The notes under the pieces are model-generated. The model worked only from the letters and a program-made list of their open reading frames with translations, searched no databases and was not told the origin of the DNA. Shown one piece after another: positions 13,567-64,000 of a stretch of DNA of 64,000 nt (positions are counted from its first letter, which is position 1; each line of letters opens with the position of its first letter). The position numbers and the translations under genes are program-made. The DNA is from Candidatus Nomurabacteria bacterium (lineage in GTDB: Bacteria > Patescibacteriota > Minisyncoccia > Phycocordibacterales > UBA9973): the NCBI GenBank assembly GCA_052035195.1, contig JBPOHU010000001.1, forward strand, positions 13,713 through 77,712, written 5' to 3'.

Positions 13567-13580
13567 ATTAATTAGGGTTT

Positions 13581-14432: not shown

Positions 14433-14490
14433 ATTGCAATAGTAGCATAAACAAAATAAAAACCCTCCCAAAAATTTTGAGAGAGTGAGG

Positions 14491-14709: not shown

Positions 14710-14742
14710 TATACAAATTTTATGTTATAATACACTAACTTT

Positions 14743-15987: not shown

Positions 15988-15998
15988 TATATAAACCA

Positions 15999-16736: not shown

Positions 16737-16770
16737 CTATTGTTAATAAAAGTTCTGCTATAATATATTC

Positions 16771-18639: not shown

Positions 18640-18653
18640 TTTTTTAAACCATC

Positions 18654-19997: not shown

Positions 19998-20742
19998 TAG
20001 GTGGTACCTCAGGAGTAGTTTCAGTTGTATCTTCTACTGTGATATCTGTTTCTGTTACTAAATTTAAATCAGAGGTTAGTTGTTCTATTTCTTTAGATAT
20101 AATCTTATTTTCTTCAGCAGAAACCTTCTCTATAGTAGCATCGACTGCTTTTAATGCGTCACTTTGATCTTCTGTACTACCATCAACTATGTACTTCTGG
20201 ATATCTTCTTTTTGATTTTTAAGACTTTGTTCAAGTGTAGCAGTTACTTTTAGGGCCTCACTCGGCTCTGCGTCAGATAGAGTACCAAGCTCTTTAGAAA
20301 AATCTTTTATATGAGTATCTAGAGCTCTTTGAGCAGTCTCTTGTTTTGCTTTAGTAAGAGTTTTTGAAGCCGCCAAAGTCTTTATTTCACTTAATCGATT
20401 ATCAATACGAGTACTTTGCCATGAGAGTTTTTCTTCAGGAGTTGTTAAGAAGGCACCTTTAACTTCTTCGTTAACATTTATTTTGAAAGAGTATAGAGGG
20501 TCTCCCGGAAGAGAATTATCAGCTACAACAGAAACACTTCCTCCAACAAAGACAACAAATAGGAAAGTAGATAGACCTATTCTTAAGCCATGTTGTATCC
20601 CTCTGTGGAATATTGAAACAACAGGAGTTGATCGAGATATTTGAATATTTCTAGCAATAGAAGCACGAAGAATAGCACGCTCATCATTAGAGAGGTGTAT
20701 GTCTTTAAACATCTTTAATTGTTCGATTTTTTTCTCAATCAT
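19975..20742 (-). CDS. Putative anti-sigma factor / membrane protein with periplasmic coiled-coil domain
   Basis: Overlaps the stop of the upstream ECF sigma gene by 8 nt. Single TM helix (LSTFLFVVFVGGSVSVV), then a helical ectodomain. Confidence 0.4.
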   Translation of the reverse strand: MIEKKIEQLKMFKDIHLSNDERAILRASIARNIQISRSTPVVSIFHRGIQHGLRIGLSTFLFVVFVGGSVSVVADNSLPGDPLYSFKINVNEEVKGAFLTTPEEKLSWQSTRIDNRLSEIKTLAASKTLTKAKQETAQRALDTHIKDFSKELGTLSDAEPSEALKVTATLEQSLKNQKEDIQKYIVDGSTEDQSDALKAVDATIEKVSAEENKIISKEIEQLTSDLNLVTETDITVEDTTETTPEVPPTTLPATQ

Positions 20743-21253
20743 AAATTGTTTCGTTATAGCGACCTTTAAGTTTTTGGATAATTCTATGAATACGAACAGT
20801 CATAGCATTGACGCTTTTGCCGTATAAGCTCGCAATTTCTTCGATAGGTTTTTCTTCTGTGTATCTAAGGAAAATAATTTGCTTACTTTCTTCATCTAGC
20901 TCTTCGAGTAGCCCTTGAACCATTTTGATATCATCATTTCTGAATATTTCATCAGTATGAGTATTTGTTTCTGGGTCAAAACCATTTTCAAGTAGGGAGT
21001 CTAGAGAGGAACTTTTGCTCTTTTTGTAATAATCAATAACAGCATTTTTTGCTATTCGATAGACGAATGCTTGTTCGTGTAGCACCTCTCCTCCTTTGGC
21101 TAAATAGCCCCAAAGCCTTACAAAAGTGTCTTGGGTGATATCTAGGGCAATATGGCGAGAGCCAACACGAAAGAAAACAAAGCGAAATATCGCATCTTGA
21201 TATTCTTCAAATAGCTTGGAAAATAAGGCTTGTTGTTCGTTTTCGCGATTCAT
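20735..21253 (-). CDS. ECF-type RNA polymerase sigma-70 factor
   Basis: Region 2 (QDTFVRLWGYLAKG..AFVYRIAKNAVIDYY) and region 4 HTH (EIASLYGKSVNAMTVRIHRIIQKLK). Start taken at the internal ATG (MNRENEQ). Confidence 0.75.
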   Translation of the reverse strand: MNRENEQQALFSKLFEEYQDAIFRFVFFRVGSRHIALDITQDTFVRLWGYLAKGGEVLHEQAFVYRIAKNAVIDYYKKSKSSSLDSLLENGFDPETNTHTDEIFRNDDIKMVQGLLEELDEESKQIIFLRYTEEKPIEEIASLYGKSVNAMTVRIHRIIQKLKGRYNETIYD

Positions 21254-21346
21254 AGAACGATTCAATCTTAGTGACGAAGTAAAGCCACAGATATTACATA
21301 TTATACACAACATTTTGTTTTAAAGCATATTTGCTATAATAGCCCA

Positions 21347-52603: not shown

Positions 52604-53299
52604 ATGATAAAAAAAGAGTTTGAGAGAAAAAATGCTATCAAGTTAAGAAAGCAAGGTCTCACGTACCAAGAAATTTTAAATAAAATACCTGTTGCCAAGT
52701 CCACGCTCTCTCTGTGGCTTCGTGATGTTGGTTTGGCAAAGAGACAAAAACAAATTCTTTCACAAAAGAAAATTTTATCCGCCAAAAGGGGTGGTATCGC
52801 AAAGAAAAATCAAAGAATTGAAAAGCTTAATACTATTGTTAATAATGCCTCAAAGGATATTGGCACAATCTCTGATAAAGAATTGTTTTTGATAGGTACG
52901 ACGCTCTATTGGGCTGAAGGAGCAAAAGAAAAGCCTGATAGACCAGGCTCTGGATTCCAATTTGGCAACATGGATCCAAGGATGGTGCAGGTGGTTCTCG
53001 CTTGGTTAGAAAGGGTATGTAAAATTCAAAAAAGTATGGTAGTATACGAGCTGTACATTCATAAAAGCCATAAAAACAGGCTCTCAGAGATGGTAAAATA
53101 CTGGGAGAATACTCTTGGTTTGAACAGAGGCAGTATTACTAAAGTTTATTTAAAAAATAACCAATCTAGCAATACAAACCGTAAAAATACAGGATCAGAG
53201 TATCGAGGACTTATCCGCATACGAGTAAATCAAAGCTCTACTCTAGTTAGAGAGATTGCAGGATGGGTCAATGGCATATATAAAGAAATTTGTGAATAA
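52604..53299 (+). CDS. HTH-domain protein with a LAGLIDADG-like motif (possible homing-endonuclease-like DNA-binding protein)
   Basis: N-terminal HTH (LRKQGLTYQEILNKIPVAKSTLSLWLRDV). Central LFLIGTTLYWAEGAK resembles a LAGLIDADG helix. Ends 1 nt before tRNA-Gln. Confidence 0.35.
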   Translation: MIKKEFERKNAIKLRKQGLTYQEILNKIPVAKSTLSLWLRDVGLAKRQKQILSQKKILSAKRGGIAKKNQRIEKLNTIVNNASKDIGTISDKELFLIGTTLYWAEGAKEKPDRPGSGFQFGNMDPRMVQVVLAWLERVCKIQKSMVVYELYIHKSHKNRLSEMVKYWENTLGLNRGSITKVYLKNNQSSNTNRKNTGSEYRGLIRIRVNQSSTLVREIAGWVNGIYKEICE

Positions 53300-53300: not shown

Positions 53301-53375
53301 GCTGGGGTATCGTCTAACGGCAGGACTACGGTTTTTGGTACCGTCTATCGAGGTTCGAATCCTTGTACCCCAGCT
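53301..53375 (+). tRNA. tRNA-Gln (anticodon UUG)
   Basis: GCTGGGGTATCGTCTAACGGCAGGACTACGGTTTTTGGTACCGTCTATCGAGGTTCGAATCCTTGTACCCCAGCT. Anticodon arm ACGGT-TTTTGGT-ACCGT, T-loop GGTTCGAATCC. No encoded CCA. Confidence 0.8.
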
Positions 53376-53576
53376 TTGCACATAAATTTCTTTTGACTGA
53401 AAAAGTTTTAGGCGACCGCGTGCCACCATAGCTTTCTTTGACCCAACGTAGCTTTAGCGAAGTAGGTAGCGGTGGAGCAAGGAGAGATTCCTTGTCGGGT
53501 AGCTAGAGGAGGGTAATTTGTTATACAGACAAATTATCTTTACATAAAGCAAAAACTTCTATGATAGAATATCTAA

Positions 53577-54191
53577 ATGGCAAAGGTTGCTTTTATTGAT
53601 GTTCAAAATACAGAAACTACAGTTCAGAAATGGTTAGGTTTTTCAATTGATTGGCAAAAATTTGTTTCTTTTCTGAAAACTGACTGGGGTTGTAATCATG
53701 TGTATTTTTATTTAGGTATTCAGCAAGGAGACACGACAAGAGCTCAAGAGTTTGATAGCTTAAAGAGCGCAGATGTTACTGTTCGACCTAAGTACTATTT
53801 TGTACATAAAGTCAGTGATAAAACAGTCAATACAACCTGTCCGGTATGTTCACAAAAAATAACTGTTAAGGTTGATATGGGATATACATGGAAATGTAAC
53901 TGTGATGTTGAGCTAACCGCAGACGTTCTCGACCATGCTCAACCAGACACTCAGATGTATCTTTTTAGTGGTGATGGGGACTTTGAGTTTCTTATCGATA
54001 AAGTCTTAGGAAAAGGAACAGATCTTGTTTCTATAGTTTCAACTTCCAAACCCCGAATAGTGGCTGGTCGTTCTGATTATAGACTCTCAAAAAAACTAAA
54101 GGCTATGACTAGAAATAAATTGGTTAAAATTTTAGAGATTGATAATATTAAAAAGAAAATAGAGAGTGGCGCGGTAATATCTACAGCTTAA
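53577..54191 (+). CDS. NYN/LabA-like (PIN-fold) domain protein with inserted zinc ribbon
   Basis: VAFIDVQN..YFYLG..DVELTADVLDH..YLFSGDGDFEFLI is the NYN pattern. A CPVC..CNC insert. Followed by a terminator hairpin (54197-54217). Confidence 0.6.
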   Translation: MAKVAFIDVQNTETTVQKWLGFSIDWQKFVSFLKTDWGCNHVYFYLGIQQGDTTRAQEFDSLKSADVTVRPKYYFVHKVSDKTVNTTCPVCSQKITVKVDMGYTWKCNCDVELTADVLDHAQPDTQMYLFSGDGDFEFLIDKVLGKGTDLVSIVSTSKPRIVAGRSDYRLSKKLKAMTRNKLVKILEIDNIKKKIESGAVISTA

Positions 54192-54325
54192 AACGCAAAA
54201 GAGCCGCGAAGCGCGACTCTCTTTAGCGATAGTAATACTATATACAAACACTGATTATTTGTCAAGTCAAGATGTGCATAACTCAACCAAACTTAGATAA
54301 ACAACCTTAATTTGCAATAAATACT

Positions 54326-54366
54326 GTTCTAATATCGCCCCAAACCTTCAGCAAATAAGCTATACT
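54326..54366 (+). repeat. Island intergenic motif copy 1 (full, promoter-type: ..GTTCTAATATCGCCCCAAACCTTCAGCAAATAAGCTATACT)
   Basis: Ends in a TATACT -10-like box 6 nt before ATG 54373. Confidence 0.6.
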
Positions 54367-54372
54367 TTAATT

Positions 54373-54837
54373 ATGGAACAATTACTTAATTCGAACGAGA
54401 AGCCAGAATCATCAAAAATAATTGATGAACAACTTGAGGCGCTTAAAAAAAATACTCAAGAAAATATAGAGGATAATGAATTCCTATTAAAACACCATTT
54501 TGAACTTTTAAAGAGATATATTGAAATACTCAAAGATAGTGAAGACTGGATCAAAGAAATGATTGCTTTTAGTAAGCAGAATGAAGAAATGGACAATTTC
54601 TTTAAAGAGCAAGGCAAAGAATCATCATTTTCTAGCAGATCGTATACGGTTGAGGATGTAGAAAGAGAGTTACAAAATATTGAAAAAATAAAATCTGAAA
54701 TAAAAGAAATTCATAGACTTATTACTGATATGCAACTTGATACAGTAAAAGAAAGAGAAGATTTAGATCTATTAAATGAATTGGAAAAAGAATTTAAGGA
54801 AACTGTAATGAGGATTGCCCCAGACCGACTGAATTAA
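54373..54837 (+). CDS. Hypothetical acidic coiled-coil protein (154 aa)
   Basis: ORF with a -10 box 6 nt upstream. No recognizable domain. Confidence 0.4.
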   Translation: MEQLLNSNEKPESSKIIDEQLEALKKNTQENIEDNEFLLKHHFELLKRYIEILKDSEDWIKEMIAFSKQNEEMDNFFKEQGKESSFSSRSYTVEDVERELQNIEKIKSEIKEIHRLITDMQLDTVKEREDLDLLNELEKEFKETVMRIAPDRLN

Positions 54838-54845
54838 TCAGTATA

Positions 54846-54894
54846 GTTCCAACATCGCCCCAAACTGCCAGCTACGACTTTTTTGAGTTATAAT
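54846..54894 (+). repeat. Island intergenic motif copy 2 (GTTCCAACATCGCCCCAAACTGCCAGC..TATAAT)
   Basis: TATAAT at 54889-54894, 6 nt before ATG 54901. Confidence 0.6.
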
Positions 54895-54900
54895 TAAATT

Positions 54901-55425
54901 ATGAAAGTTTTACTAACAGGTGTCGCAGGGACAGGAAAGTCTACAATAATAAATTCTCTAAATGAAAAAGGGTTAGTTGCTATTGATCTTCATGACATAC
55001 CTGGGTTATTTTTTTGGCAAGACAAAATAACTAAAGAGAAGGTTCCATATTCTCCTGTTCAATTAAGAGAGTGGTTTGATAACGTAGATAGACTTTGTGA
55101 TATTGATACATTAAAAGAAATATTAGACCAATATCAAGATGTTGTTATGGCTGGGACAACAAGCGGTAGTAATCAAAAAGAATTCTTATCACTTTTTGAT
55201 AAAGTGATACTTTTGCAAGCAAATCCCCAGACGCTAGTTGATCGTATGGAAACGAGAACAAATAAATCGGGGTACGGGAAGACAAAGGCAGAGCAAGAAG
55301 ATAATGTTGAATGGCAAAAAGAATTCGAACCGCTTTTGCTCTCTTATGGAGCTATTCCTGTAAGTACTGAAGAAGAACTTGATGATGTAGTAGATAGAGT
55401 TATTACAGTATTAAACATTAAGTAA
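54901..55425 (+). CDS. P-loop NTPase, small nucleotide/nucleoside-kinase-like (AAA_33/shikimate-kinase-like fold)
   Basis: Walker A LLTGVAGTGKST at the extreme N-terminus. 174 aa. Confidence 0.5.
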   Translation: MKVLLTGVAGTGKSTIINSLNEKGLVAIDLHDIPGLFFWQDKITKEKVPYSPVQLREWFDNVDRLCDIDTLKEILDQYQDVVMAGTTSGSNQKEFLSLFDKVILLQANPQTLVDRMETRTNKSGYGKTKAEQEDNVEWQKEFEPLLLSYGAIPVSTEEELDDVVDRVITVLNIK

Positions 55426-55477
55426 GGTTCCAACATAAACCTAAACCCTTAGCAAATATTTTGGAAATAAAAAAAAT
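55426..55477 (+). repeat. Island intergenic motif copy 3 (GGTTCCAACATAAACCTAAACCCTTAGCAAATATTTTGGAAATAAAAAAA) followed by terminator hairpin 55478-55499
   Basis: Starts immediately after the stop at 55425. The hairpin GGCTTCG..CGAAGCC plus the A-run act as a terminator for the minus-strand gene 55507-55986. Confidence 0.6.
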
Positions 55478-55506
55478 GGCTTCGCGTATTTACGAAGCCA
55501 TCAAAG

Positions 55507-55986
55507 CTACTTTTCATTTATACTGAAACCGTGGATAGAAACTTTAGCAGGGTCAATATTTTTTTCAAATACAAACACACTCAATTCTTTCAAAGTGACA
55601 ACATTCGTGTTGTTTTGTGCGTGTTGTTCTATCAGAATTTTTATTTTCCCTTTCAATCTGTTTTCTCGAAAATCATTTATGTTCTGAGTAACAACTTCCC
55701 AGTCCTCTATGGATAGGTGGAGAGACTTGTCTTTCGGGTATTTAAGATGATCAAGATATTTACCTATCAAGACCAACGGTTCTACACCCAAAACCTCACT
55801 TATTGCTAAAATGGCATCGAGAGTCGCACGGGATGTACCTAATTCATAAGAACTCCACTGTGCCTGTGATATTTTCAATAATACAGAACAGTTTGCTTGG
55901 GTGAGGTTTTTATACTTCCTCACCTCCTTTAGAGCGAGGCCAAAAGCGTTAGTGTTGTTTTCTTTCATTAATGAAGTTTTGTTCAT
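55507..55986 (-). CDS. XRE-family helix-turn-helix transcriptional regulator
   Basis: HTH_3-like segment LKEVRKYKNLTQANCSVLLKISQAQWSSYELGTSRATLDAILAISEVLGV. Confidence 0.6.
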   Translation of the reverse strand: MNKTSLMKENNTNAFGLALKEVRKYKNLTQANCSVLLKISQAQWSSYELGTSRATLDAILAISEVLGVEPLVLIGKYLDHLKYPKDKSLHLSIEDWEVVTQNINDFRENRLKGKIKILIEQHAQNNTNVVTLKELSVFVFEKNIDPAKVSIHGFSINEK

Positions 55987-56018
55987 CTTACAACTTATCC
56001 AACTTTTGTCAATAAACA

Positions 56019-56115
56019 GGTTCTAACATCTCTTCGGCAAGTTAACAGTGAGTCTGTCGAACTGCTCAGAATAAACTTTCCCATACGGCCAGCAAATATT
56101 TTGGAAATAAAAAAA
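56019..56115 (+). repeat. Island intergenic motif copy 4 (split: GGTTCTAACATC .. about 58-nt insert .. CCAGCAAATATTTTGGAAATAAAAAAA) followed by hairpin 56116-56133
   Basis: The two motif halves are separated by inserted sequence. The hairpin GCCACC..GGTGGC terminates the minus-strand gene 56144-56533. Confidence 0.5.
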
Positions 56116-56143
56116 GCCACCTTTTAGGGTGGCCTGAGGGATA

Positions 56144-56533
56144 TCAGAGCATTTTTTCTCTGAATTCCTTAAGTCCTTCAGCATGTGTTGTGTGTATGAA
56201 CTCTCCGGTATCAGGAGCTCGGAAGCATCCCAGTGTATACGGTCGTCCGTCCTTGGTCTCAATATAAAGAGAATCTCCAGGGCGAATTTCCCAGAAATCT
56301 TTTTTTACGAGAACAAATGTAGTCTCGATGGGTACACTCGCTTTTTTTGTTACGAGGGTTGCTCTTATTCTCATAAGCAAGGCAGGACAATTTTCGAATA
56401 CTTCTTTTTCTTTGCAACTGATTGTGGCCTTTTGAAATTCAAATTCAGTTGAATCAAGAAGAAATTCGATGAGTTTTTTGAGAATGTCTAAAGAGACAAT
56501 CTCGGAGGCGCTAAGTGATTTAAAGAACGTCAT
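56144..56533 (-). CDS. Hypothetical protein (129 aa)
   Basis: ORF with a motif/terminator unit at its 3' end. The palindrome TTGACTACAAGTCAA lies about 85 nt upstream. Confidence 0.35.
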   Translation of the reverse strand: MTFFKSLSASEIVSLDILKKLIEFLLDSTEFEFQKATISCKEKEVFENCPALLMRIRATLVTKKASVPIETTFVLVKKDFWEIRPGDSLYIETKDGRPYTLGCFRAPDTGEFIHTTHAEGLKEFREKML

Positions 56534-56616
56534 AATAATCCAATTTTAGGATTTATTGGCAGGGAATACCCGCTACCAAACTACAGTTTTAGTAGTATTT
56601 ATATTATACTATATTA

Positions 56617-56631
56617 TTGACTACAAGTCAA
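56617..56631. promoter_or_regulatory. Perfect palindrome TTGACT-ACA-AGTCAA
   Basis: Inverted-repeat arms TTGACT/AGTCAA with a 3-nt spacer, upstream of the minus-strand gene 56144-56533. Confidence 0.35.
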
Positions 56632-56663
56632 TGTACTAAAGCCGAACTCTGTACTTTGGTAAT

Positions 56664-56691
56664 CAGTAAATATTTTAGAAATAAAAAAAAA
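56664..56691 (+). repeat. Island motif copy 5 (3' half: CAGTAAATATTTTAGAAATAAAAAAAAA) plus hairpin 56691-56704
   Basis: The hairpin AGAGC-CGAA-GCTCT terminates the minus-strand gene 56715-56999. Confidence 0.5.
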
Positions 56692-56714
56692 GAGCCGAAG
56701 CTCTTTAATCTTTT

Positions 56715-56999
56715 TTAATCAGAAATAGGTTCGAGAAAAAATAAAGTATCAATAAGTCGAACACTGGAAAAAGGGAAGCTGTAAGGATTGTTTCTTATTT
56801 TTACTATCTTATTAACGACTTTATGTCGAGGGAAAATAATAGAAACTATTATAGAAGGTTTATTTTCCATCTCTAACACTTCTTCCTCATCATAAAAATT
56901 ACCGATGTAGGACCGAATTCCATATTGTATTTTCCCTTGACCTCTCATCTTAACCTTAGGGTATTCTAACCCTGCACTATTAGTACTATTATTGTTCAT
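56715..56999 (-). CDS. Hypothetical protein (94 aa)
   Basis: ORF bounded by a motif/terminator unit. Confidence 0.3.
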   Translation of the reverse strand: MNNNSTNSAGLEYPKVKMRGQGKIQYGIRSYIGNFYDEEEVLEMENKPSIIVSIIFPRHKVVNKIVKIRNNPYSFPFSSVRLIDTLFFLEPISD

Positions 57000-57080
57000 A
57001 CCTCTTTTTTAATTATAGTATCTCTTTTGAAATGAAAGTCAAAGTCCAAACTTTCTGTTTACACAGGTAGTCCATATAGT

Positions 57081-57105
57081 CAGCAAATATTTTGGAAATA
57101 AAAAA
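57081..57105 (+). repeat. Island motif copy 6 (3' half: CAGCAAATATTTTGGAAATAAAAAA) plus hairpin 57106-57122
   Basis: The hairpin GTTCCC-GATTT-GGGAAC terminates the minus-strand gene 57145-57747. Confidence 0.5.
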
Positions 57106-57144
57106 GTTCCCGATTTGGGAACTGTTAATCTTTACAAAGTAAAC

Positions 57145-57747
57145 TCAAACCTTTCTTTTTGTTAGGTACATGAACAATGAATTCATTACGAATAAATAAA
57201 GAGGAAAGAGTGCATACACCCATGCATACCCGATACAAATGATAAGAGTAAATGCCCAGGATAATACTCCGTACAACCATGCTGAAGATTTTTCAGATTC
57301 TGGTTTTGTATAAGCATTATGAATGGTTGGGATTGCAACAATAAAATCCGCAATAATTCCGAAGATGGTGGTTACGAGGGCATTTTTTGTAGATAGATAT
57401 ATACCTACACAAATCATGCCTAAAATAAGACACCACCAATCCATAGGTTTTATGCTGTAACTTTTAACTGCAAATGCGGTGACGGCAATGATGACACAGA
57501 AAATTACTGAAGTAAGGATTGTTATCTGGTTCCACTCAAACCCGTTTTTAATGACCTGAGAAGTAAGACTGATTCCCATCATGAGCGCCCAACCGATCCA
57601 TGAGAGGGGGCGTGGCTTTATTCTCTTTTCATGATTTTTGTTAACAATAGAAGCTATATAAGCGAGGCTTGCTGCAACTAGTAATAGCCCAGCAATGGCA
57701 CTTAATGATTGCTCCATAAAACTTGGAAGAAAGCTAATTAATTGCAT
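57145..57747 (-). CDS. Integral membrane protein (about 6 TM), hypothetical
   Basis: Hydrophobic segments throughout. 200 aa. Confidence 0.45.
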   Translation of the reverse strand: MQLISFLPSFMEQSLSAIAGLLLVAASLAYIASIVNKNHEKRIKPRPLSWIGWALMMGISLTSQVIKNGFEWNQITILTSVIFCVIIAVTAFAVKSYSIKPMDWWCLILGMICVGIYLSTKNALVTTIFGIIADFIVAIPTIHNAYTKPESEKSSAWLYGVLSWAFTLIICIGYAWVYALFPLYLFVMNSLFMYLTKRKV

Positions 57748-57815
57748 TTCGTATATTTTTTGTTGTGAAATTTAATTTTAAATTAACACTAAAATATAAT
57801 CTTGTCAAGTATCTT

Positions 57816-57857
57816 GGTTCCAACACTATCCCGCACTGCCAGCAAATAGGTTATAAT
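57816..57857 (+). repeat. Island motif copy 7 (full, promoter-type: GGTTCCAACACTATCCCGCACTGCCAGCAAATAGGTTATAAT)
   Basis: TATAAT at 57852-57857, 6 nt before ATG 57864. TTGTCAAGT lies 25 nt upstream. Confidence 0.6.
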
Positions 57858-57863
57858 CATTTT

Positions 57864-58244
57864 ATGAAAATTAAAGAATCAGATAGAGAGCTTTTCTTTG
57901 GTCTCGAAACAAGTCTCCACAAAAAAGATATCCGGAATTCTATAGAAAAAACCTCAGAACTTCTCGCGGATGATTTTATTGAATTTGGAAGTTCAGGAAT
58001 AAAATATGACAAAGCGTTTACTTTAGATTCTTTAAGTAAAGAACAGGTTGATTTAGAAATAACAGTTGAAGATTTTGAAGTAAAATACCTTTCTGAGGAT
58101 GTAGTGCTCGTAACTTACAAAACTTCAAAGCTAGATCCTAAAAATGGAGAAAAATTCTGTTCACTTAGAAGTTCGATATGGAGATTTAATGGAGATAAGT
58201 GGGCTATGGTATTTCATCAGGGGACTAAGGTATTAAACCAATAG
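57864..58244 (+). CDS. NTF2-like / SnoaL-like (DUF4440-type) small protein
   Basis: MKIKESDREL..; the C-terminal WRFNGDKWAMVFHQGT is typical of NTF2-like DUF4440. The ORF-track start at 57765 would read through the promoter motif. Confidence 0.5.
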   Translation: MKIKESDRELFFGLETSLHKKDIRNSIEKTSELLADDFIEFGSSGIKYDKAFTLDSLSKEQVDLEITVEDFEVKYLSEDVVLVTYKTSKLDPKNGEKFCSLRSSIWRFNGDKWAMVFHQGTKVLNQ

Positions 58245-58292
58245 CGGTCCCAGCTTCGTCCCAAACTCCCAGCAAATTTTTAGAAATAAAAA
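58245..58292 (+). repeat. Island motif copy 8 (GCGGTCCCAGCTTCGTCCCAAACTCCCAGCAAATTTTTAGAAATAAAAA) plus hairpin 58293-58313
   Basis: Starts right after the stop at 58244. The hairpin TTAGCCG..CGGCTAA terminates the minus-strand gene 58321-58614. Confidence 0.6.
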
Positions 58293-58320
58293 TTAGCCGA
58301 TTTAAACGGCTAATGAATAA

Positions 58321-58614
58321 TTATAGTTTTACATTTAACACAGTTAAAACATATCCTCCTATAGCAAATGCTCCGATGATAACTATCACTATTGATAAAG
58401 AAAAAACTAGTTCACCTAGTCGGTCTTCATTATCGAATGAATTTTTTGTTTCTAAGATACCAAAAAAACCAAACAATGTAGTATAGAGAGCAAAACTAAG
58501 CAGGGTAAATGTTGTCTTAAATTTGGGGTTAATAATTTGAATGAACATCAAGATCAAGAATAGGAGAAGCGATATAATCGCGAGTGTTAATAAAACACGT
58601 TTAAATATTTTCAT
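58321..58614 (-). CDS. Small membrane protein (97 aa, 3 TM), hypothetical
   Basis: Hydrophobic ORF. Confidence 0.35.
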   Translation of the reverse strand: MKIFKRVLLTLAIISLLLFLILMFIQIINPKFKTTFTLLSFALYTTLFGFFGILETKNSFDNEDRLGELVFSLSIVIVIIGAFAIGGYVLTVLNVKL

Positions 58615-58663
58615 TAGTTAGATTTTTTTGTATATTACACTATATTACTTGTTTGTCAATAAA

Positions 58664-58705
58664 GCGGTTCTAACATCGACCCAAATCCAACAAATAAGTT
58701 ATACT
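58664..58705 (+). repeat. Island motif copy 9 (full, promoter-type: GCGGTTCTAACATCGACCCAAATCCAACAAATAAGTTATACT)
   Basis: TATACT at 58700-58705, 8 nt before ATG 58714. TTTGTCAAT lies just upstream. Confidence 0.6.
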
Positions 58706-58713
58706 TAGTTTCT

Positions 58714-59214
58714 ATGGAAAATACTCCGTTAAATAATCCTGAACGCAAAGAAACTGTTATTCCTGAGTTGAAAATAATATCAGATAAAGAATTGGTTGAT
58801 CTTATATATCAGAAAAAAAGTTTTCCTCAAGATAACAGGTTTCTTCCTGTAGACCAAGGCGGTGTATTTAAATACTTTGATCTTGAAGATATTATCGGAG
58901 CAAATAGTTATTCAAAAACAAAAAAGTTATATCCTAATGTATCCTTAGAAAATGAAATAGTTGGTTTAGCTGAACTTGAAGAGGACCCTAATAATGAAAA
59001 AAACTATTGGATGAAATTTGTTTCTGTTGATCCAAAATATCAAGGAAGGGGATATGCATCATTATTAATAAATAAAATATTTGAATATGCAAAAGAAAAT
59101 AACTATTCTTTGCAACCATCGTTTTATTCAAATGAAGGAGAATTAAAATTGAAAAAAGTAATGGATAGAGCTATTGCTGAAAGCGGTGTGGTTATTATTG
59201 ATGGTCACAAATAA
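58714..59214 (+). CDS. GNAT-family N-acetyltransferase
   Basis: Motif A region FVSVDPKYQGRGYASLLINKIFEYAKENN (Q/R-x-x-G-x-G/A). Confidence 0.6.
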   Translation: MENTPLNNPERKETVIPELKIISDKELVDLIYQKKSFPQDNRFLPVDQGGVFKYFDLEDIIGANSYSKTKKLYPNVSLENEIVGLAELEEDPNNEKNYWMKFVSVDPKYQGRGYASLLINKIFEYAKENNYSLQPSFYSNEGELKLKKVMDRAIAESGVVIIDGHK

Positions 59215-59254
59215 TATCTCTAACACTCTCCTTGTGCAGGCAGGGCCATACAAT

Positions 59255-59280
59255 CAGTAAATATTTTAGAAATAAAAAAC
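59255..59280 (+). repeat. Island motif copy 10 (3' half: CAGTAAATATTTTAGAAATAAAAAAC)
   Basis: Sequence match to copies 5 and 6. No hairpin follows. Confidence 0.4.
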
Positions 59281-59317
59281 ATTATTCTTCTTGGATCTTC
59301 TGCGCTATTATAAATAT

Positions 59318-59701
59318 ATGCTTGAGTCATTTCCAGAACAAGAAAAATCACCAATACCCGAGAAGCCGTTGATTGAAAAACGACAGATTTTTGATATGTA
59401 TAAGATATCTGGAAAAGAAGATGCTCGTTTTAGAGAAATTTTAATAGCATATCTTGGACAAAGACAAGATCTTTTACATGATGATGAATTGGAGAGTATT
59501 AAGGAAGAAGGAAAAAGAAATGAACATGTTCGAGAGACTATTGAGTGGAATATAGAAAAAGCTGAGATGTTCATCGAAGTTGGTTTGTTGGACGAAGCCC
59601 AAGAAACAATAGAAGATATTATAGATGGCGTAAAAGATCCTTATTTTGGAAAAATGAGAGAGATACTCGATACCATAGAAAAGATGCGTAATTTAAAATA
59701 G
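59318..59701 (+). CDS. Hypothetical acidic protein (about 127 aa)
   Basis: ATG preceded directly by TATAAATAT. The ORF-track start at 59291 is a TTG. Confidence 0.35.
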   Translation: MLESFPEQEKSPIPEKPLIEKRQIFDMYKISGKEDARFREILIAYLGQRQDLLHDDELESIKEEGKRNEHVRETIEWNIEKAEMFIEVGLLDEAQETIEDIIDGVKDPYFGKMREILDTIEKMRNLK

Positions 59702-59781
59702 TTATTTATCAATAAACAGGGTTTCCCTCTGTTCAATAAACTCAGAATAGACTGAGTAAAAATAAAAAGAGCCTGTAATTT

Positions 59782-60540
59782 TTACAAGCTCTTTGGAAAA
59801 AATTTACGCCGAAACATACGACATACCCAATTGAAAAAGAACACCCCAGTAAGTAAAAATAATTTTGGCCTTCGAATACAATGCTTAAGAAAGGCTCCGC
59901 AGGTCTTCAGAGAACAGAAGAAATATACAAGAAGATTCCGAAAGGTAGGCTTAACACTTATTATGTTTGCTTTCCAGTCTCTTTTGAAATCTAACAAAGT
60001 ATCAATCACATCTCCTGCCTTAGAAAGGTCTTCAACAAATGCAGTAAAATCAGGTGTGCTTTTTTCAATAAAAAGAAGTACAAGTTCACTAGTGAGAAGG
60101 CCTTCTTCTTTCGTGAGTTGAAACAATTCTTTCGCAGAACTAGCTTTACGTATCCTTTCTGATTGAGTAAACACTGCTTGTACAGTACGAGATAAATCAA
60201 TACGATCCCTATTTGATCTGATATTTTTTAGCAGATAGGTCATCATTTCATCTATAGCCAAAGGGAAAGCATTGTTGGTCTGGGAATAAAGAATTCTTCG
60301 GATAACCTTATCTTGAAATTCTTTTCTATCTTCCTTACTGCTTGATGAATCAATCTTGTCATCAATAAACACCATGACAGCAAACAATACCTGTAGCACT
60401 TTTTGTTCTTGTTGTGAAGGATTTAATTTGAAAGCTTTTGCAGATTTAAATAAATAGTAGCTACTTTTCTGATACGCGTACCGTAAATGTGGTCGTAAAT
60501 CTTTTTTCCAGTCGGATGAACTAAGAATCAGACTTTCCAT
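59782..60540 (-). CDS. Isoprenoid (squalene/phytoene) synthase-like protein, divergent
   Basis: LFAVMVFIDDKID resembles the first Asp-rich motif (YaFcRxxDDxxD). AGDVIDTLLDFKRD resembles the second. Low similarity otherwise; the C-terminus is hydrophobic and unusual. Confidence 0.35.
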   Translation of the reverse strand: MESLILSSSDWKKDLRPHLRYAYQKSSYYLFKSAKAFKLNPSQQEQKVLQVLFAVMVFIDDKIDSSSSKEDRKEFQDKVIRRILYSQTNNAFPLAIDEMMTYLLKNIRSNRDRIDLSRTVQAVFTQSERIRKASSAKELFQLTKEEGLLTSELVLLFIEKSTPDFTAFVEDLSKAGDVIDTLLDFKRDWKANIISVKPTFRNLLVYFFCSLKTCGAFLKHCIRRPKLFLLTGVFFFNWVCRMFRRKFFPKSL

Positions 60541-60713
60541 TTAAATTAAAGTTTTTAGTTAAAGAACGGACATCTAACTATCTGCACAAATAGTTCGTCA
60601 GAGGTTAGATAACTTGAAACAAACATTATAATCTATTATTCATATTGTCAATATTAATCTTTTAGTTTTAACCTAAAAGATTAAATAACTTAAGATAGGT
60701 TATAATAGAGATT

Positions 60714-61103
60714 ATGAAAACCATTTTAGTTGACGCAATAGATTGTTTTGTTTCTGATAAAGGAGAGATTTTTCAAGAAATGCATGACCTTCTTGAGACA
60801 TATCCAAATAAGAAAATTATTGTAACCGGTGCAGACGATGAACAGTTTAAAACCTTCGGTCTAGATAAAATGCCATACGAAGTATTTACCTTAAAGCATG
60901 ACCCAGAAAAAACTAATCCAAAGTATTTTAAAATGCTTCTTGAACAATATAGATTAGATAAAGATGGCGTTGTTTATTTTGAACACAACCGTTATGCAGT
61001 TGAGAGTGCGCAGATAGCAGGGATCGTTAGTTATTTTTATGATAATTCTTCAAAAGACTTGAAAGCTCTCAAGGCTTTCTTGGATGAAAATCTTGAAAAA
61101 TAA
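60714..61103 (+). CDS. Small HAD-like hydrolase fold protein (129 aa), tentative
   Basis: N-terminal ILVDAIDCF resembles HAD motif I (hhhDxDx). TATAAT lies 7 nt upstream of the ATG. Confidence 0.35.
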   Translation: MKTILVDAIDCFVSDKGEIFQEMHDLLETYPNKKIIVTGADDEQFKTFGLDKMPYEVFTLKHDPEKTNPKYFKMLLEQYRLDKDGVVYFEHNRYAVESAQIAGIVSYFYDNSSKDLKALKAFLDENLEK

Positions 61104-61120
61104 AAAAACCTGAAACTTTT

Positions 61121-61378
61121 TTAAGTTTTCAGGTTTTGATTTATTTTACCGGGCTTTTTCTTCTGATGGATTAGATGTTCTTCCTTTGTTGTCGTATTTT
61201 CTCCATTTGATTCTTTTTCAATCAAAGCTTTTGCTTTTTCCTTGCAAACAGTACAAGTTATTTCATCTATATCTCTAAAGGAAACCCAGTCATGATTTTT
61301 TGGCCAGTCTTTTGCAAATTTTTTCGAGAAACCGCAAAGTGGATCACTCGTACAAAGAGCGTGCATTATCTTTGCCAT
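61121..61378 (-). CDS. Small Cys-containing protein (85 aa), hypothetical
   Basis: Four Cys residues (ALCTSDPLCGF..ITCTVCKEK). Consensus promoter TTGACA-16-TAATAT upstream on the minus strand. Confidence 0.3.
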   Translation of the reverse strand: MAKIMHALCTSDPLCGFSKKFAKDWPKNHDWVSFRDIDEITCTVCKEKAKALIEKESNGENTTTKEEHLIHQKKKPGKINQNLKT

Positions 61379-61403
61379 AAATGTACTTATTTAAATTTGT
61401 CTT

Positions 61404-61470
61404 TATATTACAAGCTAAATTCTCTTTGTCAAATAAAAAAGTCTTTTGTCACAATATGACAAAAGACTTT
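61404..61470 (-). promoter_or_regulatory. Terminator-promoter unit on minus strand (hairpin 61440-61468 plus T-run; TTGACA-16-TAATAT)
   Basis: Reverse complement of tgtcaa at 61427-61432 is the -35 box; reverse complement of atatta at 61405-61410 is the -10 box. The same unit design (conserved flank TGATATTACAAGCTAAA..TTTGTCAAATAAAAAA) recurs at 62307-62338, 62819-62858 and 63768-63838. Confidence 0.5.
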
Positions 61471-61473
61471 GAC

Positions 61474-62277
61474 TTAATCTATCTCTTTTTCGGGGGTAAA
61501 CAAACTGAATGTTTCCTCGTGTAATCCTAAGCGCAGTGCCTCTACCTCAAGAATTCTCTCCGGAGAAATGTTGCTTAGATTACAATTCGTACCGAGAAGT
61601 TGGATAAAGTAAACCTGTTGGAGTTTTTGTGGTGCTCCCCAGACGATTTGTTCCGGAAGTATTTGGGTGATTATTTCTTGCACCAGACCTTCACGTACCT
61701 CACCTGATCCACGGTATATACCCACATTTCCAGCATCTTTACTTTCTGCAAACACGTACTTTGAGCCACATTCGAGTTCTGAACGCATCAGTTCAATCCA
61801 TTTATATGGAGGAATAATGTATGCTGGGTCTTTCGATCCAACCTTGCTGTAAACAGTACCTATTCTTGCAAGCTTTTCGATATAGCTACATTTTTCTGAA
61901 GGATGGATAGTCACACATCCATCACTTACCATAAATGTGTCTATTTGGTTTTTTTCGCACAGTTCCATGTAGCCGTCGAACTTATCTCTTTTCAGAAATG
62001 CTTCGAAAACTATTCCCGACAAAAACGGGGTGATGTTTAGTTTCTTGCAGAGCGATACCCTTTTTTGTAAATCATTACTAATAAGGGCTTCGGGGCCGAT
62101 CTCCAGAACATCGATGTGTTTGTGGTACGATAGTGCGTTTTCGAGAGTTTTAAGAGGGATACCTCTATCTACGAGGACATTGATTCCTGATTGTCTCGGT
62201 TTTGCATTTCGTTCAGGGAGATCAAAATATGAAAACCCTTCTAAGATGGTGTTGTTTTCTTTATTCATTTTTAACAA
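61474..62277 (-). CDS. comA: (2R)-phospho-3-sulfolactate synthase (ComA family)
   Basis: FDLPERNAKPRQSGINVLVDRGIPL matches the ComA N-terminal LPxxxKPRxxGLTxVxDxGL pattern. 267 aa, a typical size. Confidence 0.55.
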   Translation of the reverse strand: MLKMNKENNTILEGFSYFDLPERNAKPRQSGINVLVDRGIPLKTLENALSYHKHIDVLEIGPEALISNDLQKRVSLCKKLNITPFLSGIVFEAFLKRDKFDGYMELCEKNQIDTFMVSDGCVTIHPSEKCSYIEKLARIGTVYSKVGSKDPAYIIPPYKWIELMRSELECGSKYVFAESKDAGNVGIYRGSGEVREGLVQEIITQILPEQIVWGAPQKLQQVYFIQLLGTNCNLSNISPERILEVEALRLGLHEETFSLFTPEKEID

Positions 62278-62355
62278 TTTTCTTTACATTACTATATAAA
62301 AATATGTTGTCAAATAAAAAAGCTGAAATTATTCAGCTTTTGTTTTAGAGGAGTA

Positions 62356-62802
62356 TTAGTTTGCATTTTCGTAGAGATGTGAAGAAAGCTCTATTTCTAT
62401 GAGAGTTTCTTTTGTGAGACTTTTTCTCTTGGCCTTAAAATCATACCTGTTGTCAGAAAGCCATACTGTGTAGGAGAGTAGGTTGTCGTATTCTTTAAAT
62501 TCTCCGTCAGGATGAAATGCTCCTGCGTGTGCAAAAAATAAAAAGTTTGAACCCGCCACCTTCATGATCTCGTTGAGGTGAGTAGTTCCATTTGAAGACT
62601 TCATGTCGTGGATACTATTGTAAATATTCAAGACATCTTTTTTTGAAAACCCATCACTTCCTTCTATGACAGTGATACAGGTCGATATCTTCAGTGCCTC
62701 CGGTTGTTCGAGAAGGAAGAACAGTATCTTTTTTGCCAATTCTGTGGCATCTTTTGAATGGATAATGAGGTACTTTACTGCCTCTGTTTGTGTGTTGTTC
62801 AT
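62356..62802 (-). CDS. Hypothetical protein (148 aa)
   Basis: ORF with a consensus promoter upstream and hairpin terminator (62321-62338) downstream. Confidence 0.35.
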   Translation of the reverse strand: MNNTQTEAVKYLIIHSKDATELAKKILFFLLEQPEALKISTCITVIEGSDGFSKKDVLNIYNSIHDMKSSNGTTHLNEIMKVAGSNFLFFAHAGAFHPDGEFKEYDNLLSYTVWLSDNRYDFKAKRKSLTKETLIEIELSSHLYENAN

Positions 62803-62899
62803 TACTTAAGGTTTTGTTTGATATTACAACCTAAACTCTTTTTGTCAAATAAAAAAAGTTGACTAGCACTTATGTTCTTATTTGAGTATTATTGTTTTA

Positions 62900-63463
62900 A
62901 TGGAAAGATTATTAAAGACATATAGAGCATGGAGATTTAAAAACACTTTTTTGTTGATAGGGATTCTTGTTTTTGTTTTTTATGCTACGGGTACTACAGC
63001 AGGGCAACAAGTTGTCTTGAGTATTTCCAAGCTAGGATACTTCGGGTCTTTTATTGCAGGAATGTTTTTTGTTTCTACTTTTACTGTGGCTCCTGCAGGA
63101 GTTGTACTTTTTAAATTTGCGCAAATATATAATCCGATACTTATAGCACTTTCAGCAGGAGTAGGAGCGGTGATAGGAGATTATATTATTTTTCGATTTT
63201 TGAAAGATAATGTTTTTGAAGAGATAAAACCTGTATTTATGAAATTAGGGGGGTCTCATATTACACACCTGCTCGGGACCCCATATTTTGGATGGTTGGC
63301 GCCAGTTTTAGGGGCTATAATTATCGCTTCACCTTTCCCAGATGAAATAGGGGTAGGACTTATGGGGATCTCAAAGCTTAAAAACTGGCAGTTTCTTTTG
63401 ATATCATTTTTACTCAATAGTGTAGGAATATTACTTATCGTTACTCTGGCAAAATCTATTTAG
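62900..63463 (+). CDS. DedA/SNARE-associated (VTT-domain) family membrane protein, tentative
   Basis: Multi-TM protein with Gly-rich re-entrant-like segments (GYFGSFIAGMFFVSTFTVAPAG; GVGAVIGDYIIF). Start taken at ATG 62900. Confidence 0.4.
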   Translation: MERLLKTYRAWRFKNTFLLIGILVFVFYATGTTAGQQVVLSISKLGYFGSFIAGMFFVSTFTVAPAGVVLFKFAQIYNPILIALSAGVGAVIGDYIIFRFLKDNVFEEIKPVFMKLGGSHITHLLGTPYFGWLAPVLGAIIIASPFPDEIGVGLMGISKLKNWQFLLISFLLNSVGILLIVTLAKSI

Positions 63464-63513
63464 TACTATAGATATTTATTAAAATAAAAAAAGAGCCGTA
63501 GCTCCTTTTAATT

Positions 63514-63753
63514 TTAATGATTTTTGAAATACACCTGGTCTTCGGCGGTTGGTTTGACTCTTGAGTGTCCACGTCCCATTGGAATAAGGGTGACATCGGC
63601 AATACCGTCACCATCTTCATCAATTATTTCTGACCAGCCGTTTGGTGTATTCCGGTCTACTATTTTGTTAGGAATGATCTTCTTAAGTACAGAAGGAGCA
63701 ATAATAGTACACATTAAGACTATTAAAGATGCCCAAATAAATACTTTTCTCAT
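63514..63753 (-). CDS. Small secreted protein (79 aa), hypothetical
   Basis: Signal peptide MRKVFIWASLIVLMCTIIAPS. Consensus TTGACA-16-TAATAT promoter upstream. Confidence 0.35.
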   Translation of the reverse strand: MRKVFIWASLIVLMCTIIAPSVLKKIIPNKIVDRNTPNGWSEIIDEDGDGIADVTLIPMGRGHSRVKPTAEDQVYFKNH

Positions 63754-63814
63754 GTTAACTTTTTTCTTGATATTACAAGTAAACTGCGTTTTGTCAATTT
63801 TTTTAAAACAAAAT

Positions 63815-63838
63815 AAAAAAACCCGTTTAAACGGGCCC
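63815..63838. terminator. Intrinsic terminator (GGGCCCGTTTAAACGGG hairpin with A/T runs)
   Basis: AAAAAAACCCGTTTAAACGGGCCC. Serves the partial minus-strand gene ending at 63859. Confidence 0.55.
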
Positions 63839-63858
63839 TATCTTTAATCACAGACAAC

Positions 63859-64000
63859 TTATTCTTTTCTAGGACCATAGAGTTGTTCAGTGTCATTTTC
63901 GACACAGTAAACGATCATTTGGCCATGAGAAAGGTAATTTCCTAAATTACAACTCTTTCTCAGTTCTTTTCCATACAAACGATCTGTTAGATAGTCTAAG
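63859..64000 (-). CDS. Partial CDS (C-terminal 46 aa), hypothetical; 5' end outside window
   Basis: Open frame ..LDYLTDRLYGKELRKSCNLGNYLSHGQMIVYCVENDTEQLYGPRKE ending at the TAA stop at 63859-63861. Confidence 0.3.
   Translation of the reverse strand, partial: LDYLTDRLYGKELRKSCNLGNYLSHGQMIVYCVENDTEQLYGPRKE

Follow-up and report, generated by a model that had tools for sequence, protein, structure and literature searches.

Chromosomal integrons and the clusters of attC sites lacking integron integrases (CALINs), islands that grow by accretion at tRNA genes and small gene modules bounded by Xer recombination sites are the described systems closest to the locus that we report here. Accretion at tRNA genes is known from the tycheposon-containing islands of Prochlorococcus and from the cis-mobilizable and the integrative and conjugative elements (CIME/ICE) of streptococci, and the pdif modules of Acinetobacter plasmids as well as the arrays of integrative mobile elements exploiting Xer (IMEX) at dif are small modules with 28-bp sites that are served by the host proteins XerC/XerD, each pdif site consisting of two inverted 11-bp arms around a 6-bp spacer and the sites alternating in orientation. 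Patescibacteria are host-dependent and have minimal genomes of 0.6-1 Mb, and little is understood of the ways in which they acquire and try out genes. Here, we describe a 64,000-nt stretch of the genome of a Candidatus Nomurabacteria bacterium (the window, meaning the whole stretch of DNA that was analysed), in which an island of small genes at 53.4-64 kb begins next to a tRNA-Gln gene and is punctuated by a repeated element of ~31 nt, which we call element A. Genomic islands have already been reported in groundwater Patescibacteria, in a study that makes no mention of tRNA genes, cassettes or integrons (PMC12455944). In the literature, including full text, we found no description of the A motif, of the one-gene cassette grammar or of anchoring at tRNA-Gln in Patescibacteria or the candidate phyla radiation (CPR).

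The island is a strain-variable array of autonomous single-gene cassettes anchored 3' of tRNA-Gln. Our best reading, to which we give a probability of roughly 45%, is that of an integron-like cassette system in which cassettes would be exchanged by site-specific recombination at A, with homologous recombination adding to the variation. Element A would be the recombination site, comparable to attC/attI but double-stranded and sequence-specific, and a recombinase encoded elsewhere in the genome would act on it, while homologous recombination between the boundary modules (A, a T-tract that we call B and a promoter module that we call Pm) would add deletions and swaps. In a more specific form, which we put forward tentatively, Patescibacteria would own a cassette-acquisition system that evolved independently as an analogue of integrons, with arrays of self-expressed cassettes that mostly begin at tRNA-Gln, with A as a sequence-specific, non-palindromic, replication-oriented 28-nt site (GGTTCCAACATCGTCCCAGACnnCCAGCAA) and an unlinked recombinase mobilising the cassettes.

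Like chromosomal integrons and CALINs, the system forms long arrays of single-gene cassettes of ~0.5 kb, each with one open reading frame (ORF) and one boundary site, all sites having the same orientation; content differs between close strains, the array is oriented consistently relative to replication, and the cargo is rich in GNAT and NUDIX proteins, small enzymes and proteins of unknown function. Unlike attC, which is conserved in structure and variable in sequence, A is conserved in sequence and unstructured, and neither an IntI-type integrase nor an attI/Pc platform lies adjacent to the array. Each cassette has its own -10 box or promoter and 45% are inverted relative to A, whereas the cassettes of integrons mostly lack promoters, share one orientation and rely on Pc for their expression; anchoring at tRNA-Gln is a further difference. 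By this comparison the array appears integron- or CALIN-like in its working but lacks what defines those systems, namely IntI, attC hairpins and promoterless co-oriented cassettes. With tRNA-anchored accretion islands it has in common the position on the 3' side of a tRNA, co-oriented repeats with some resemblance to tRNA 3' ends, partial tRNA copies in some loci and strain-variable content. However, its units are single genes of 0.35-0.7 kb instead of kilobase-scale elements, no integrase lies in the island, A is a distinct motif common across taxa and not a copy of the host tRNA end, and some arrays are located away from tRNAs. As in pdif and IMEX modules, a conserved core of ~28 nt bounds small gene modules, and the recombinase of pdif is encoded elsewhere in the host, as that of A would be, but A lacks dyad symmetry and all its copies point in the same direction. 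Unlike DNA uptake sequences (DUS/USS), which are distributed densely over whole genomes and in both orientations, A is clustered and in one orientation, with 0 copies in the 53 kb outside the island. The additive genomic islands of marine bacteria are similar in having a fixed chromosomal site with gene content that differs between co-occurring strains. Overall, the array is akin to cassette arrays and flexible islands, with a substantial chance that it represents a separate recombination system.

The change in architecture at the tRNA is abrupt, as the initial annotation of this DNA had proposed. Upstream of 53.3 kb lie large, densely packed core genes, mostly in the same direction, which include those for TGT, UvrC, TatC, YchF, TruD, ParB, RelA/SpoT, TopA, DprA, SerS, Dus and DnaX. 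At tRNA-Gln (53303-53374) gene size, spacing and GC content all shift: the median protein has 151 aa in the island against 340 aa across the 42 upstream genes, the median intergenic gap is 97 nt against 30 nt, and GC is 0.341 against 0.368. The island starts 2 nt past the end of the tRNA, that is, at its 3' side. Between 53577 and 64000 it holds, distributed over the two strands, 18 complete ORFs and a further one truncated by the end of the window, in agreement with the ~20 small genes initially counted. The limits first proposed for the island (53376-63860) stand at the start and fail at the end, as it continues past the window to a block of Cyt-b5, DoxX and AI-2E-transporter genes, known from related contigs; the window shows the left two-thirds of the array.

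Element A, which had escaped the initial annotation, is 28-31 nt long and in the window reads GGTTCCAACATCGCCCCAAAC..CCAGCAAAT, or GGTTCCAACATCGCCCCAAACTGCCAGCAAAT in a fuller form; its general consensus, given above, is derived from metagenomes. About 10 copies occur, three of them degenerate or insert-bearing, and all lie on the plus strand whatever direction the adjoining genes take, at all four junction types, so that between 54.3 and 59.3 kb every gene boundary bears one. No copy of A or B was found in the rest of the window (53 kb), and 0 would be expected by chance. What precedes A is a stop codon if the gene on that side lies on the plus strand and a -35 box if it lies on the minus strand; behind A follow either a -10 box and the ATG of a plus-strand gene or tract B and the hairpin of a minus-strand gene, B (ATATTTTGGAAATAAAAAA) being the T-tract of the convergent terminator. 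Since A is flanked by these gene ends on each side, each gene is an A-bounded cassette in either gene direction. The copies in the window are the following.

54326-54356, plus strand: A copy 1, preceding the 154-aa gene with its -10 box and ATG (nhmmer E = 8e-6; repeat families D3 and D4)
54846-54876, plus strand: A copy 2, nearest to the general consensus, at a +/+ junction (nhmmer E = 1.7e-6 with the window model and 5.5e-8 with the metagenome model)
55427-55474, plus strand: A copy 3 with B, at a +/- junction, beginning right after the stop codon (repeat search, nhmmer)
56019-56114, plus strand: A copy 4 with B, the long form, in which 51 nt are inserted between boxes 1 and 2, at a -/- junction (nhmmer)
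56640-56688, plus strand: A copy 5, degenerate, with B, at a -/- junction (B matches; A read directly from the sequence)
57044-57105, plus strand: A copy 6, degenerate and with an insert, with B (B matches, sequence reading)
57817-57847, plus strand: A copy 7, at a divergent -/+ junction (nhmmer E = 9e-5)
58247-58294, plus strand: A copy 8 with B, at a +/- junction (nhmmer)
58667-58695, plus strand: A copy 9, at a -/+ junction; in strain contig L081 it is directly followed by the 129-aa HAD-like gene (nhmmer)
59218-59279, plus strand: A copy 10, degenerate, with B, the last in the window (B matches, nhmmer)

Several other identities for A were considered and rejected. As an RNA family it had no support, since Rfam, run in gathering and E-value modes on the window and by E-value on five canonical arrays, returned tRNAs only. 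When the bottom strand of 10 A sites was folded as single-stranded DNA, z-scores ranged from -0.1 to +1.8, no better than shuffled sequence, and attC-like folding was dismissed on that ground. Scans of viral contigs for the A and Pm patterns yielded only unrelated matches, with GC of 0.42-0.55, and an origin from phages or plasmids was accordingly set aside.

Far beyond this locus, the nhmmer model detected at least 158 copies of A in at least 73 metagenome loci. These derive from one metagenome scan with the exact pattern GGTTCCAACATCNNCCCANAC, which matched at least 120 loci; conservation at the pattern positions is inflated by this exact-pattern start, and the census is incomplete. Approximately 40 of the matches, each a single exact match with no nhmmer match and probably due to chance or coding sequence, were left aside, and eleven loci were excluded by name from the statistics, most of them belonging to a high-GC gene family with the pattern inside an ORF. 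This family (L142, L156, L171, L173, L190, L193, L209 and L212; GC 0.63-0.69), in which the pattern lies inside an ORF of 360-530 aa, is unrelated to the arrays and warns of false positives in motif scans. ORFs on the metagenome contigs were called crudely, the 41 A matches that fall 'inside' a longest-ORF call being due to the excluded gene family and to over-extended ORFs, and most array contigs were placed taxonomically by synteny, by DnaX similarity and by a single protein search.

Among the matches listed, to which all counts for metagenome loci here and below refer, at least 42 loci have 2-8 copies of A, and in none of them, over 85 adjacent pairs, is the orientation mixed. Copies are spaced at a median of 532 nt (interquartile range 412-680 nt), with exactly one ORF in 72 of the 82 intervals between them (median 131 aa). 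Cassette genes run in the direction of A in 42 cases and opposite to it in 34, and the junction types are nearly equal in number (+/- 22, +/+ 20, -/- 18, -/+ 17). The GC of multi-copy loci spans 0.38-0.63 and thus many taxa are involved, and despite this span and unrelated cargo, 20 of the ~28 positions of A are 94-100% conserved, with the values at pattern positions inflated as noted; conservation extends to positions that the pattern did not fix (G12 96%, T13 91%, CCAGC 79-91%). The cargo includes NUDIX, HAD, GNAT, Ham1, SnoaL, isochorismatase and phosphoribosyltransferase (PRTase) proteins, along with many proteins without a match, and such a profile resembles that of chromosomal integrons. 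The grammar holds across loci. Where the upstream gene is co-oriented, it stops 0-5 nt before A in about half of the cases. Downstream genes that run in the direction of A are preceded by a -10 box, often TGn-extended, which ends 6±1 nt ahead of the ATG and lies 4-45 nt from A, and because the distance to A varies, A was rejected as a -35 or sigma-factor element.

The close fit between upstream stop codons and A is also what would be expected if A were a polar expression or insulation signal, such as a roadblock, a termination or nucleoid protein site, or an unstructured C-rich RNA element (e.g. for Rho loading) 3' of co-oriented genes, with small recent genes gathering at insulators and their variability coming from generic horizontal transfer. 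In accordance with such a role, the co-oriented genes that end just before A have no hairpin of their own, the top strand of A is C-rich and less structured than shuffles (z +0.4 to +1.8 in 9 of 10 sites), and its orientation tracks local gene direction and the leading strand. We nevertheless judge a signal of this kind to be improbable, as A is just as frequent at -/+ and -/- junctions, where no co-oriented transcript arrives, stands at variable distances from downstream promoters, is confined to arrays and missing from the rest of the window (53 kb), where terminators are needed as well, and is absent from 80 dnaX loci of other species. Given one orientation at every junction type, independence of promoter spacing, confinement to arrays and near-invariance against changing cargo, the most economical interpretation of A is a recombination site recognised by a protein.

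The link between the array and tRNA-Gln is evident in the window as well as in the metagenomes. Two features mark the left end of the island.

53303-53374, plus strand: tRNA-Gln (UUG), the left anchor, co-oriented with all A copies (ARAGORN, Rfam)
53410-53505, plus strand: GC-rich element after tRNA-Gln, whose 3' end GAGATTCCTTGT....AGCT resembles the tRNA-Gln 3' end (sequence reading)

A tRNA is present in 11 of the A-bearing metagenome loci, in ten of them tRNA-Gln (UUG or CUG) and in one tRNA-Met, and it always lies upstream of the array and is co-oriented with it. In 17 of 19 loci A points the way in which the large flanking genes predominantly run, and in 18 of 19 the strand that carries A has a positive GC skew. 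Right after the tRNA, partial duplicates of the tRNA-Gln 3' end were found in three loci (56 nt in L114, 23 nt in L119 and L200); the window (53480-53505) and the locus of a sister species (L108) have only degenerate versions resembling the tRNA 3' end. A and the 3' ends of tRNA-Gln share GGTTC and AGnCTnCCAGCA, and as a lead only, A may have descended from attachment (att) repeats at the tRNA-Gln 3' end. The GC-rich element (~89 nt) may be a degenerate att-type duplicate. It has a second copy, 95.5% identical, in the L081 island (13971-14059), where it interrupts an A element and has the direct repeat CGGCCAGCA on either side, and the sister species has GAGATTCCGAAGTACCCCAGC, matching its own tRNA. 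Two of the four differences between the copies are A-to-G and would keep G-U pairs, and a structured RNA was rejected as an explanation, given that folding was no better than in shuffles (z -0.1 and -0.6).

One metagenome locus, L200, has a 486-aa large serine recombinase (Resolvase, Recombinase and Zn ribbon domains) and a RepSA/G2P-type replication initiator (Rep) at 108-2430 on the minus strand, located between tRNA-Gln with its 23-nt partial copy and an array of at least six A copies. The pair looks like a small integrated replicon that would use the same tRNA. At 4645-5079 of the same locus, four tandem 87-nt repeats lie in a 266-aa ORF with spurious EGF- and zinc-finger-like Pfam hits, which is a repetitive protein within the integrated element. 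An element of this type at tRNA-Gln raises the question of whether the arrays are the decayed remnant of serial integrations of small elements at the tRNA 3' end, following the classical course of accretion at tRNA islands, with the A copies as old, non-functional attL/attR scars. The adjoining tRNA-Gln and its partial copies in L114, L119 and L200, the recombinase and Rep of L200, the sequence that A shares with tRNA-Gln ends and the degenerate state of the copies in the window would all fit. Scars would decay, yet A is near-invariant across taxa and unlike the 3' end of each resident tRNA; one-gene cassettes of 0.35-0.7 kb are far smaller than integrative elements, and some arrays are not next to any tRNA. 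We therefore regard scars of this origin as very unlikely.

Cassette turnover is evident from a comparison of close strains. Strain contigs from other samples were retrieved via the exact sequences of the XRE protein and of a 231-aa protein encoded upstream of tRNA-Gln. The genes of the island in the window and their state across strains are listed below.

53577-54191, plus strand: NYN nuclease-like (Pfam); constant in all strains
54373-54837, plus strand: 154-aa coiled-coil protein (ORF); constant in all strains
54901-55425, plus strand: AAA_18 P-loop kinase-like (Pfam); constant in all strains
55507-55986, minus strand: XRE/HTH regulator, HTH_31 (Pfam); constant in all strains
56144-56533, minus strand: 129 aa (ORF); variable, A-bounded
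56715-56999, minus strand: 94 aa (ORF); variable, A-bounded
57145-57747, minus strand: 200-aa membrane protein (ORF); variable, A-bounded
57864-58244, plus strand: DUF4440, NTF2-like (Pfam); variable, A-bounded
58321-58614, minus strand: 97-aa membrane protein (ORF); variable, A-bounded
58714-59214, plus strand: GNAT (Pfam); variable, A-bounded
59318-59701, plus strand: 127 aa (ORF); variable, A-bounded
59782-60540, minus strand: 252 aa (ORF); variable, without A
60714-61103, plus strand: 129-aa HAD-like (sub-threshold HAD-IA matches); variable, without A
61121-61378, minus strand: 85 aa (ORF); variable, without A
61474-62277, minus strand: ComA (Pfam); variable, without A
62356-62802, minus strand: 148 aa (ORF); variable, without A
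62900-63463, plus strand: 187-aa membrane protein (ORF); variable, without A
63514-63753, minus strand: 79-aa secreted protein (ORF); variable, without A

Five arrangements of island genes occur among strains with flanks that are 97-100% identical in DNA and with an identical 231-aa protein; differing content between conserved flanks in close relatives is the mark of a flexible genomic island and bears out the hypervariable accessory region initially proposed, and the comparison of the tRNA-Gln locus showed neither gene set nor gene order to be conserved in the manner of a core region. The first four cassettes (NYN, 154 aa, AAA_18 and XRE) are constant, with proteins 99-100% identical in all strain contigs, and beyond them genes have been replaced, lost or added between strains. 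The A-bounded variable cassettes at 56144-59701 are replaced or absent in L081/L092 and L082/L094/L095, and the genes that other strains carry instead or in addition include a SET-domain gene, a 150-aa gene, an AAA_33 protein, two GNATs, a His_Phos_1 gene and a hydrolase. The variable cassettes at 59782-63753 carry no A and are bounded by promoter and terminator modules. Two types of the island's middle (M1, M2) and two of its right end (R1, R2) occur in all four combinations (window M1R1, L093 M1R2, L094 M2R2, L095 M2R1), which demonstrates reassortment by recombination within the population, and alleles of ComA have 84-96% DNA identity between strains with flanks that are 97-99% identical. 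In the sister species L108, whose 231-aa protein is 74% identical, nine unrelated small genes extend from tRNA-Gln to the AI-2E transporter, and the locus nonetheless has three copies of A and one Pm module. More distant relatives have kept dnaX and tRNA-Gln and have neither island genes nor A, which was also not found in 80 dnaX loci of other species.

Most breakpoints of similarity between strains are located in boundary modules, at 56030 (A box 1), 57085/57106 and 58291 (B), 58636-58703 (Pm and A) and 61431 (Pm/terminator), those at 56030, 57085 and 58291 being against L081 and those at 57106 and 61431 against L082. The L081 junction composed of 'long A + B + hairpin of the 200-aa gene' is the exact product of a B-to-B deletion from a window-like arrangement, and homologous recombination between repeated modules clearly contributes. 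The breakpoint at ~63648, which is the boundary of the middle and right-end island types, falls in the gene of the 79-aa secreted protein, whose C-terminal half is common to strains and whose N-terminal half is divergent (58% identity overall to a 73-aa allele).

These observations make homologous recombination alone a serious, if unlikely, rival to site-specific exchange at A. The locus would then be an ordinary flexible island whose cassettes are gained, lost and swapped as environmental DNA is taken up and recombined by way of RecA, and in which A, B and Pm serve as portable homology and no dedicated recombinase is involved. Besides the B-to-B junction of L081, it would account for breakpoints at several places within the repeated modules and for one inside a homologous gene, for variation in the right half of the island that proceeds without A and for the lack of a recombinase linked to arrays; DprA is encoded in the window, genes for T2SSE and T2SSF lie near arrays elsewhere, and relatives have type IV pilus genes. 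In contrast, the conservation of A (20 of ~28 positions at 94-100%) across GC 0.38-0.63 points to recognition by a protein, and homologous recombination needs neither a strictly uniform orientation of A nor one-gene spacing. A length of 28 nt is moreover at or below the usual minimum for efficient RecA recombination, which likewise counts against homology as the only driver.

A number of points weigh against the integron-like reading itself. Its mechanism is inferred from sequence. Crossover points are not fixed but lie in A box 1, in B, in Pm, in a -10 box and once inside an ORF (~63648), a scatter that homologous recombination fits at least as well, and cassettes differ among strains even in the right half of the window's island, which has no A. 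The window copies are degenerate relative to the general consensus. A has no internal inverted repeat, no dyad symmetry in its consensus and no hairpin, unlike known core sites of tyrosine recombinases and attC. The similarity between A and the tRNA-Gln 3' end is weak, scoring modestly above other tRNAs and about equal to tRNA-Trp, and arrays are not restricted to tRNA-Gln, because in a named Patescibacteria metagenome-assembled genome (GCA_964366495.1, L233) two A arrays 13 kb apart and in the same orientation (2945-4096 and 16307-18320) are not near any tRNA within the 21 kb examined. Further, Pfam searches found no recombinase among the island genes, the neighbours from dnaX to the 231-aa gene and 10 further ORFs of the window, and none was present in the precomputed Pfam annotation of the window at 27-53 kb. 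No integrase occurs in the window's island or its strain variants, and no recombinase family recurs beside arrays in 26 longer loci; a recurrent array-linked recombinase was rejected after Pfam analysis and all-against-all clustering of 132 flanking ORFs found none, the sole large serine recombinase near an array (that of L200) being a single case.

The locus shows that co-occurring strains exchange single genes at a defined site of the chromosome, and that arrays of this kind are built around one boundary motif in many lineages, whose GC spans 0.38-0.63. If A is a recombination site, it would represent a new cassette system with a simple, searchable signature, open up directly the pool of mobile genes in an uncultivated phylum and possibly provide a tool for site-specific integration in organisms that are newly becoming genetically tractable; it would also be an integron analogue in organisms whose tiny genomes were believed to leave little space for such plasticity. 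Even under homologous recombination only, the cassette grammar (leaderless plus-strand genes, Pm and a terminator for minus-strand genes) could be reused, and the A motif would be a practical marker for accessory genes in Patescibacteria genomes.

This grammar differs between the strands. A minus-oriented cassette has a TTGACA-16-TAATAT promoter, an A-rich leader and its own hairpin, and all promoters of this form and all 10 strong hairpins in the island belong to minus-strand genes. Pm is an extended promoter and 5' untranslated region (5'UTR) module of ~45-50 nt ahead of these genes, with the pattern TTATTGACAAA..N..TGTAATAT..A-rich leader..ATG, also written TTATTTGACAAAA-N10-TTGTAATATCAAAGAAAA..TTAA..ATG; its nhmmer model has 5-6 matches in the island and 0 in the remaining 53 kb of the window. 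In plus-strand genes, a -10 box (TATAAT or TATACT) ends 6-8 nt before the ATG; these genes have no -35 box and no hairpin of their own, and their mRNAs are probably leaderless. The -10-to-ATG stretches in the window lie at 54357-54375, 54877-54903, 57848-57866 and 58696-58716, and in ~45 of 57 genes of metagenome arrays that are co-oriented with A, a -10 box (often TGn-extended) likewise stands 6±1 nt before the ATG, with no Shine-Dalgarno sequence, which suggests that leaderless mRNAs are the rule for such cassettes in Patescibacteria. The promoter and terminator modules of the window are as follows.

55975-56018, minus strand: Pm-type promoter of the XRE gene (TTGACA-16-TAAGAT), a weak family member (nhmmer and promoter scan)
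58617-58666, minus strand: Pm module (nhmmer E = 2e-6)
61389-61470, minus strand: terminator hairpin 61438-61470 fused to Pm module 61389-61441 (breakpoint against L082 at 61431)
62270-62341, minus strand: terminator hairpin 62318-62341 fused to the Pm module of ComA (nhmmer and terminator scan)
62806-62856, minus strand: Pm module of the 148-aa gene, back to back with the plus-strand promoter of the 187-aa gene (nhmmer)
63754-63839, minus strand: Pm module 63754-63799 and terminator hairpin 63818-63839 of the next minus-strand gene (nhmmer and terminator scan)

Terminator-like hairpins number 23 in the island against 5.9±2.3 in shuffles, and 17 against 11.2 expected at 1-20000 of the window. 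Generic sigma-70-like matches are not enriched in the island (38 found against 39.6 expected); what stands out among the near-consensus promoters described in the initial annotation is the specific Pm module. Its statement that every gene has its own strong promoter and intrinsic terminator is correct for minus-strand genes and incorrect for plus-strand genes, and three of its fused terminator-promoter cassettes (61404-61470, 62307-62338 and 63768-63838) were recovered, the fourth (62819-62858) being a promoter without a hairpin. The island genes are individual transcription units and not an operon.

Concerning gene labels, Pfam agreed with those given earlier for NYN, P-loop (AAA_18), XRE (HTH_31), NTF2-like (DUF4440), GNAT and ComA. 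The HAD-like label had sub-threshold support alone (NCBIfam E 0.01-0.06, HAD-IA), and a DedA-like label had none in Pfam or NCBIfam searches. Phage-defence content, for which a PADLOC check had been suggested, amounted to domain-level matches in the island (NYN 1.5e-5, HTH 1.9e-8, VakA-like 6.6e-5) with no complete system, and a defence island was rejected on this result. In the 85-aa protein (61121-61378, minus strand), the first 59 residues share 76% identity with the N-terminal part of an AAA_33 kinase-like protein of L081 (241 aa), whose gene (16803-17528) occupies the same position; the window gene is thus a truncated or domain-swapped allele.

The gene of the 231-aa protein (52604-53299, plus strand) lies between dnaX and tRNA-Gln. 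Its family comprises more than 2,100 Paceibacteria proteins of nearly constant length, with an N-terminal helix-turn-helix (HTH), the invariant motifs LYWAEGxKEK and FxNxD and no Pfam family, and its AlphaFold model is confident (pLDDT, the predicted local distance difference test, 89.5) with no Foldseek match in the PDB at E<0.1; it is a conserved protein of unknown fold and function. As a candidate array recombinase or LAGLIDADG-like endonuclease it was rejected, since it is present at just one other array locus, and the huge Paceibacteria family and the lack of a PDB match also tell against such a role. Judging from their sequences, DnaX and this neighbour place the host among Paceibacteria/Parcubacteria-type Patescibacteria (CPR). 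In the closest species-representative genome (L001; DnaX 72% identical; 11089-11211), the contig ends 51 nt past tRNA-Gln, as would be expected if a variable or repetitive island breaks assemblies here.

An extracytoplasmic function (ECF)-type sigma factor (Sigma70_r2 and r4_2, 192 aa) is encoded beside a DUF5667 protein at 19975-21313 on the minus strand of the window. No link between it and the island motifs was found, nor, by eye, any consistently spaced ECF-type motif; the DUF5667 protein may be its anti-sigma partner.

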